From Octopus vulgaris (Eukaryota), in NCBI GenBank assembly GCA_951406725.2, contig OX597814.1, positions 41,230,001 through 41,294,000 of the forward strand: 64,000 nt of DNA, given 5' to 3'. The translations under genes and the position numbers were made by a program. This document shows, in pieces, positions 22,843-23,594 of this stretch. The notes below the pieces were generated by a model. The model had not been told where the DNA came from and searched no databases. It worked only from the letters and a program-made list of their open reading frames with translations. Position 1 is the first letter of the stretch; every line of letters starts with the position of its first letter.

Positions 22843-23153
22843 CATTCCTGGGTTCTCATTCCTAAGTTATTTTCCGATGTTGTTATTATTATTATTATTA
22901 TTATTATTATTATTATTGTTATTATTATTATTATTATTATTATTATTATTATTATTATTATTATTATTATTATTATCATTATTATTATTATTATTATTAT
23001 TATTATTATTATTATTATTATTATTATTATTATTATTATTATTATTATTATTATTATTATTATTATTATTCAGGTCACTACTTCGAATCGAACTCGGAAT
23101 CTTGGCGTTAGTACCCCGAGCTCTGAACCACCACGCCATATGCCAGTGGGAAT
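22843..23153 (-). mobile_element. PLE 3' module, inverted arm (tRNA-like head 23071-23144, (TAA)n, truncated terminal repeat)
   Basis: Minus strand reads GGCATATGGCGTGGTGGTTCAGAGCTCGGGGTACTAACGCCAAGATTCCGAGTTCGATTCGAAGTAGTGACCTG-(AAT)n-CATCGGAAAATAACTTAGGAATGAGAACCCAGG. Confidence 0.8.
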
Positions 23154-23457
23154 AGTGGTTAAGAGCTCGGGCTACTAACCCAGATTCCTAGTTCGATTCC
23201 AAGCATTGACCTGAACAGTAACAATAATGATGAAAATAATAATAATAATAATAATAATAATAATAATAATAATAATAATAATAATAATAATAATAATAAT
23301 AATGATAATAATAATAATAATAATATTATTAATAATAATAATAATAATAATAATAATAATAATAATAATAATAATAATAATAATATTAATAATAATAATA
23401 ATAATAATAACATCGAAAAATAACTTAGGAACGAGAATCCAGATTCGAAATTTACCC

Positions 23458-23505
23458 AAGACTCCTGAAGAAGGCTGGAGGGTTTATCAGCCGAAACGTC
23501 GTCTT
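23458..23505 (+). ncRNA. Minimal type I hammerhead ribozyme of PLE type (best-preserved copy)
   Basis: CTGAAGA (23465-71), one extra A, stem II GGCTG/CAGCC, GAAA (23493-96), palindromic ACGT helix III, GTC triplet. Helix I is imperfect in this copy (AAGAC..GTCTT). Confidence 0.7.
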
Positions 23506-23594
23506 AATAACGTATAAATGTATATATATACATATATATATGTATGTATGTATGTATGTATGTATTTATGTATTTGTTGGTGCATATGTTTGTA

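Follow-up and report, generated by a model that had tools for sequence, protein, structure and literature searches.

The 64,000 nucleotides of the Octopus vulgaris genome analyzed here (hereafter the window) contain, at 22.8-23.8 kb, two arms joined head-to-head near position 23150, in each of which a head resembling a tRNA is followed by an extended (TAA)n tract. The locus raises the question of whether such a module is a mobile element of its own or a part of a larger one. The first-pass annotation had proposed both that a Penelope-like element (PLE) captured an internal Pol III promoter and that self-cleaved RNAs maintain a distinct retrozyme/SINE hybrid. We found that the locus is an ordinary-looking, decayed PLE insertion and a member of an abundant Penelope-type family.

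Profiles made from natural copies were used to search the six places at which the module had been annotated in the window, and all six were recovered (Table 1), together with the (TAA)n tracts after the heads; the copy at 2-4 kb does sit after the end of a GIY-YIG-type ORF. A hammerhead had been assigned to all six places, of which only one (23460-23505) passes a strict descriptor, compared with 0.01 matches expected per shuffled window (100 shuffles), the other five being decayed or missing the core. This single hammerhead has 5/5 pairs in stem II and 3/5 in stem I, and is likely inactive through damage to stem I. The 23-kb minus arm, also credited with a ribozyme, lacks one, its tail ending after about 40 nt at a LINE. 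Neither 23-kb head gives a strict match to the A and B boxes reported for it: the A box of the minus arm contains one mismatch, and the plus arm is without its first ~8 nt. The remark that the arms do not start at the tRNA 5' end holds for the plus arm; the first base of the minus arm coincides with the family's 5'-end pile-up (see below), about 5-7 nt before tRNA +1 (23145). The arm at 36795-36950(+) is likely the partner of that at 32316-32489(-), the two presumably having been separated when a LINE entered the (TAA)n tract.

Table 1. Features of the PLE family in the 64-kb window.
Feature	Positions	Strand	Remarks
tRNA-derived head, minus arm	23067..23152	-	tRNA +1 at 23145
Head boxes, minus arm	A box 23138-23128, B box 23095-23085	-	one mismatch in A box
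(TAA)n tract, minus arm	22883..23068	-	
First ~40 nt of tail, minus arm	22843..22881	-	includes likely ORF start codon; adjoins LINE
Head, plus arm	23149..23216	+	5'-truncated at about tRNA position 9; head-to-head with minus arm
(TAA)n tract, plus arm	23217..23410	+	
Tail, plus arm	23409..23515	+	first PLE ORF codons; holds hammerhead
Minimal type I hammerhead	23460..23505	+	core 23465-71, GAAA 23493-96, predicted cut after 23500
Remainder of 3' tail, plus arm	23799..23845	+	microsatellite and another repeat in between
Older-subfamily copy: GIY-YIG end, 3' UTR, head, (TAA)n, decayed hammerhead	3376..4227	+	by profile: head up to 3967, tail 4079-4227
Inverted partner arm of 3376-4227 copy	1957..3381	-	another repeat interrupts at about 2320-2590; hammerhead core deleted; by profile: head 2319-2169, tail 2092-1957
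Tail-only arm, decayed hammerhead	32316..32489	-	
Tail-only arm, decayed	36795..36950	+	

Other repeats were also observed in the window. Decayed LINEs, probably Dong/R4-like by their features, lie beside (TAA)n tracts at 32671-36519(+), 58281-62252(-) and 19748-22737(-), one of them apparently having split a PLE insertion inside (TAA)n. Decayed transposase fragments, presumably mariner-like, directly follow the 4.2-kb tail at 4219-5230(+). At 11197-11327 and 30428-30528 there is a further repeat, unrelated to the PLE family, that carries a CTGANGA...GAAA motif resembling that of a hammerhead; the two places are 79% alike.

To which element the module belongs was seen most clearly outside the window. 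A query composed of the GIY-YIG end and the head gave 3887 candidates, and in all 30 loci fetched the head directly follows the ORF end, with several loci extending into the RT, which bears out the earlier view that the head belongs to a PLE. The element is arranged as the end of the ORF, the head, (TAA)n, the start of the ORF with its minimal hammerhead, and the tail. In a near-complete copy the tail continues in frame into the ORF, in which RVT_1 scores over the cut-off, and a 57%-identical homologue starts with the same peptide as that encoded by the hammerhead region; the module is thus the terminal repeat (pLTR) of one PLE family plus the first codons of its ORF. The ORF starts upstream of the ribozyme, as is also described for an anole PLE (PMC11167929). 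The majority ORF has one stop-free frame of 803 codons, and 79 homologues were collected, among them ones 57-69% identical, and 3 of the 79 have PF01541; in the family itself the GIY-YIG motif was identified by eye, Pfam giving no match on that piece. The features of an EN+ PLE are present, namely a single ORF with RT and C-terminal GIY-YIG, a pLTR arising from partial tandems together with inverted truncated arms and an optional tail, and, within the pLTR, a minimal type I hammerhead. Placement in the Penelope/Poseidon clade is suggested by the order of the domains, the position of the hammerhead and sequence motifs.

Family abundance was estimated from one hundred 10-kb stretches taken in 10-Mb steps over nine contigs (1 Mb of the 2.8-Gb genome), which contained 11 head and 23 tail matches; genome-wide there are roughly 3x10^4 heads. 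Across the loci examined the hammerhead core is intact in 127 arms, 115 of which have 4-5 stem I pairs. No head-less members of the same clade were found, the best-scoring 30 loci for a distant protein query all (30/30) being members of this family, and a metagenome scan gave one distant relative. Hammerheads of other families were encountered as well. At L062:2270-4760 (G000:C1:20000001-20010000), a near-identical tandem array with a ~359-bp unit has a type I hammerhead in each unit (5 on the plus and 2 on the minus strand, with an inversion near 2745), and resembles a young non-LTR retrozyme that is unrelated to the PLE family with the tRNA-like head. Other-family matches to the hammerhead descriptor in the spaced 1-Mb sample were at L081, L082, L104, L112, L131, L135 and L149.

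The head is colinear with genomic tRNAs. It had been likened to tRNA-Arg(ACG); among the 37 sequences (10 isotype/anticodon classes, Arg(ACG) lying outside the sample) tRNA-Arg(TCG) scored best (z 5.5-8.5), narrowly ahead of Arg(TCT) and Thr(AGT). Rfam models and a tRNA finder had been suggested as checks, and they called neither: Rfam returned no tRNA and no hammerhead for the whole window (E<=1) or for a good copy and the 23-kb locus (E<=10), and ARAGORN found no tRNA in the window, two family heads being called among 31 weak hits under relaxed settings. In predicted folding the head does not form a cloverleaf. The majority heads of the older and younger subfamilies differ at eight positions, three of them inside the A and B boxes, and these three are all G/A swaps at positions left as purine by the A/B box consensus. 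The (TAA)n spacer has a median length of 53 nt (range from 12, n=113).

If the head acted as an internal promoter, 5' ends of copies should pile up there, and they do. We picked 59 loci by ribozyme/tail sequence only (self-match dropped; one locus is also in the evenly spaced sample). The head is kept in 39, of which 29 start at -20 to +12 relative to tRNA +1, 10 start inside the head and none starts upstream (P about 1e-22, the null being the truncation rate observed inside the head); in the other 20 no head could be detected, frequently owing to insertion of another element into the (TAA)n. In the evenly spaced sample 9 of 11 heads begin at the head start, and of 1395 exact matches to a head pattern, the first 30 comprise 24 that stop (23 of them at -7 to +2) and 6 that run upstream. 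About 88% of copies reaching the head start stop within a few bases of it. Of 30 copies that include the 5' part of the ORF, one starts exactly at the head in the same arm and 3 extend into a PLE end lying upstream, the remainder being truncated at more internal points. Word depth at the head in an unrelated run (X15, data type unrecorded) steps from 0.30M to 1.9-3.3M. Two RNA runs from a related organism (about 6% of each run) showed the two strands equally deep, with a rise of only 1.5-1.7x at the head and without any pile-up of starts, and no RNA dataset was listed as containing the sequence of a long copy. ORF break points also cluster at 212-279 nt; since the 221-nt query biases this cluster, it was set aside as evidence for 3' ends of short RNAs.

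Taken most simply, these ends place the start of the RNA a few bases upstream of tRNA +1, and at three loci same-strand jumps land on head position -6. As a source of the ends, RNase P cleavage at +1 was rejected, given that in many copies the end takes in bases from before +1, as initiation and not cleavage would give, and that the head lacks the cloverleaf fold. To this extent the proposal of a captured internal Pol III promoter is supported: the head is an integral part of the PLE, and the pile-up is as expected for an internal promoter.

A more unusual point, overlooked in the first-pass annotation, is that the ORF is free of TTTT. The TTTT run is the Pol III terminator. The near-complete copy has 0 T4 runs in 2631 nt versus 32 A4 runs; 25 copies have 13 T4 runs, all minority states; and the column-majority ORF has none in 2722 columns (63 segments). 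Synonymous shuffling of the 803 codons gave 2.7 T4 expected (P 0.03-0.04), and 4.2 when Phe was given the T share of other codons (P 0.006); under a first-order Markov null P was 0.15. The comparison itself was post hoc, chosen after inspection of one copy. Runs of A, C and G are not significantly depleted in the majority ORF (G runs are also absent, with 1.1 expected, P 0.28). Two control PLE families, both of distant clades, have 9 T4 in 2500 and 14 in 2548 majority columns, at or above their own expectation. One control (L255-L274) is a young family with copies 97-99% identical, an intact 781-aa RT plus GIY-YIG frame and a second upstream ORF. A distant relative has 6 T4 in 2.1 kb. Depletion was non-significant in 3 of 4 long copies taken singly (L252, L253 and L254, P 0.41-0.49), and T4 runs are rather scarce in other LINEs too (0.9-2.3 per kb; 3 shared in 3.5 kb). 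In the old subfamily, represented by six partial copies only, there is no majority T4, and two sites are each common to two copies. Since the majority ORF lacks TTTT, Pol III may transcribe the whole element.

We therefore distinguish two proposals. That the family captured a tRNA-derived promoter from which Pol III initiates at the head is the reading we favor as probable. More tentatively, and rated somewhat below even chances, the autonomous coding PLE may itself have switched to Pol III, with the tRNA promoter driving the whole 2.7-kb element, selection having purged TTTT, and an uncapped RNA being translated. Transcription would start a few nucleotides before tRNA +1, in the pLTR-ORF junction, and the absence of TTTT would let Pol III read the whole ORF; translation of the uncapped RNA would possibly be aided by the (UAA)n leader or hammerhead processing. 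In the anole PLE PAc, RT starts 111-118 nt into the ORF on an uncut RNA template (PMC11167929). By analogy with that element only, RT would here start internally about 120-150 nt into the ORF; where the first start site is used, a short cDNA would run off the RNA 5' end and then fold back on its terminal hairpin, jump to another RNA or join a second cDNA, and these events would yield short, often inverted modules. The hammerhead would remain uncut in the RNAs that are copied.

Short copies are several-fold commoner than long ones, and one explanation is that the short modules form a non-autonomous SINE/retrozyme lineage apart from the PLE, with its own short self-cleaved or circular RNAs and borrowed PLE proteins. 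Sm-alpha, retrozymes and non-autonomous Chlamys elements, as far as their available descriptions go, provide precedents, and two unlinked loci (L328 and L330) have a common junction that joins ORF position ~247, plus two additional bases, to the start of the head and possibly marks a non-autonomous deletion derivative copied as a unit. Such a lineage nevertheless appears quite improbable. No diagnostic column distinguishes ORF-linked from short or unlinked copies after Bonferroni correction (27 versus 64 young tails; 24 versus 33 heads), and the older and younger subfamilies each include ORF-linked and head-start copies. Among 249 non-selected arms there is no 5'-end pile-up at the ribozyme cut site or stems (1 arm at the cut and 5 one base later, mostly at a palindrome), copies keep the sequence on both sides of the cut, and the loci examined contained no array in which the short unit is repeated in tandem. 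Like tRNA-derived SINEs, the module has a tRNA-derived 5'-terminal head containing A and B boxes; this head also occurs in ORF-bearing copies, so it does not mark a non-autonomous lineage separate from its partner. Nor do the copies form tandem repeats each with a hammerhead, as non-LTR retrozymes do, being dispersed or head-to-head in the loci examined. RNAs ended at the cut site were likewise rejected as templates for want of a pile-up there. With neither a diagnostic column nor cut-site ends, the short copies probably represent cDNAs that ran off the RNA of the PLE itself, neither a separate SINE nor a retrozyme, and the idea of a distinct hybrid is not supported.

The same short copies could be ordinary 5'-truncated PLEs, with RT stalling or folding back at a hairpin before tRNA +1 and the head a mere passenger without promoter role. 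A 5-bp hairpin does lie just before +1, exactly at the pile-up, many head-start junctions are fold-backs on it, and inverted truncated arms, like tails, are normal for PLEs (PMC8557442). Many other head-start junctions are without fold-back, however; the stronger hammerhead stems (-13.6 kcal/mol) cause no pile-up, and the large share of copies stopping within a few bases of the head start also makes this account very unlikely. A third alternative accepts the head as the RNA 5' end and assigns transcription to Pol II, through an internal TATA-less promoter overlapping the tRNA-like sequence, the TTTT-free ORF then being due to chance or composition. An internal TATA-less promoter is known in Drosophila Penelope (PMC2377424), the pile-up marks a start site and not a polymerase, and the T4 depletion reaches P about 0.03 with codon shuffling and 0.15 under the Markov null. 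The start just upstream of the A box with the B box at tRNA spacing, the confinement of subfamily box changes to purine positions and the 9-14 T4 runs of the control families speak against Pol II, which we consider unlikely. Pol III initiation at the captured head remains our preferred reading.

Several known systems resemble the family in part. PAc of Anolis, a Penelope/Poseidon-clade element, has the same single ORF with RT followed by GIY-YIG, a pLTR, a hammerhead over the first codons, an optional 30-40 bp tail, an uncut RNA template and inverted truncated arms (PMC11167929). The pLTR of the octopus family differs in starting with a tRNA-derived A/B-box head and (TAA)n, no such head being described for PAc in the available text of that paper; here, moreover, 5' ends pile up at the head and the ORF is without TTTT. 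Schistosoma Sm-alpha/Sj-alpha are tRNA-derived, contain a hammerhead and are reported to be transcribed by Pol III (PMC6765202, PMC2770079), so the combination that had been thought undescribed is known in this form. Those elements are non-coding, often tandem and cleaved from multimers (PMC6765202, PMC2770079), whereas the octopus module forms one end of a coding PLE, and its copies show no ends at the cut site. The TRIMp3 elements (Cassandra, Helenus and Ajax) likewise have a small-RNA-derived Pol III promoter within a terminal repeat, but they are non-autonomous LTR elements whose autonomous partners, it is argued, must use Pol II (PMC10886601), while the candidate promoter here lies in the autonomous element itself. 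Non-LTR retrozymes share the type I hammerhead and derive from PLE pLTRs; they are defined as tandem units each with a hammerhead, unlike the dispersed, head-to-head copies of the present family, and the available text of the preprint holds 0 mentions of tRNA or Pol III (bioRxiv 10.64898/2026.07.22.740005). Hammerheads in PLE repeats, opposite-strand pairs included, are known (PMC4209133), and the available text of two octopus repeat surveys makes no mention of hammerheads. In the searched main texts and abstracts of the open literature we found neither a PLE with a tRNA-derived Pol III promoter nor a PLE-mobilised SINE. What appears to be new, as we found no report of it, is the tRNA-derived Pol III-type head with a hammerhead in an autonomous PLE, together with the TTTT-free ORF.

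These results indicate that genomic copies alone can map where the RNA of a PLE starts, and that the abundant short PLE fragments can be explained as the run-off cDNAs predicted by internal RT initiation. They also suggest a short route from a PLE to SINE-ribozyme elements of the Sm-alpha kind. A type 2 Pol III promoter has been reported to give a translated reporter RNA once TTTT was removed (PMC8223928). If Pol III also makes the coding RNA of this family, this would contradict the expectation that autonomous retrotransposons use Pol II (PMC10886601) and would be a natural case of a Pol III messenger RNA, in which the PLE hammerhead and the A-rich leader would have a testable role in cap-independent translation.
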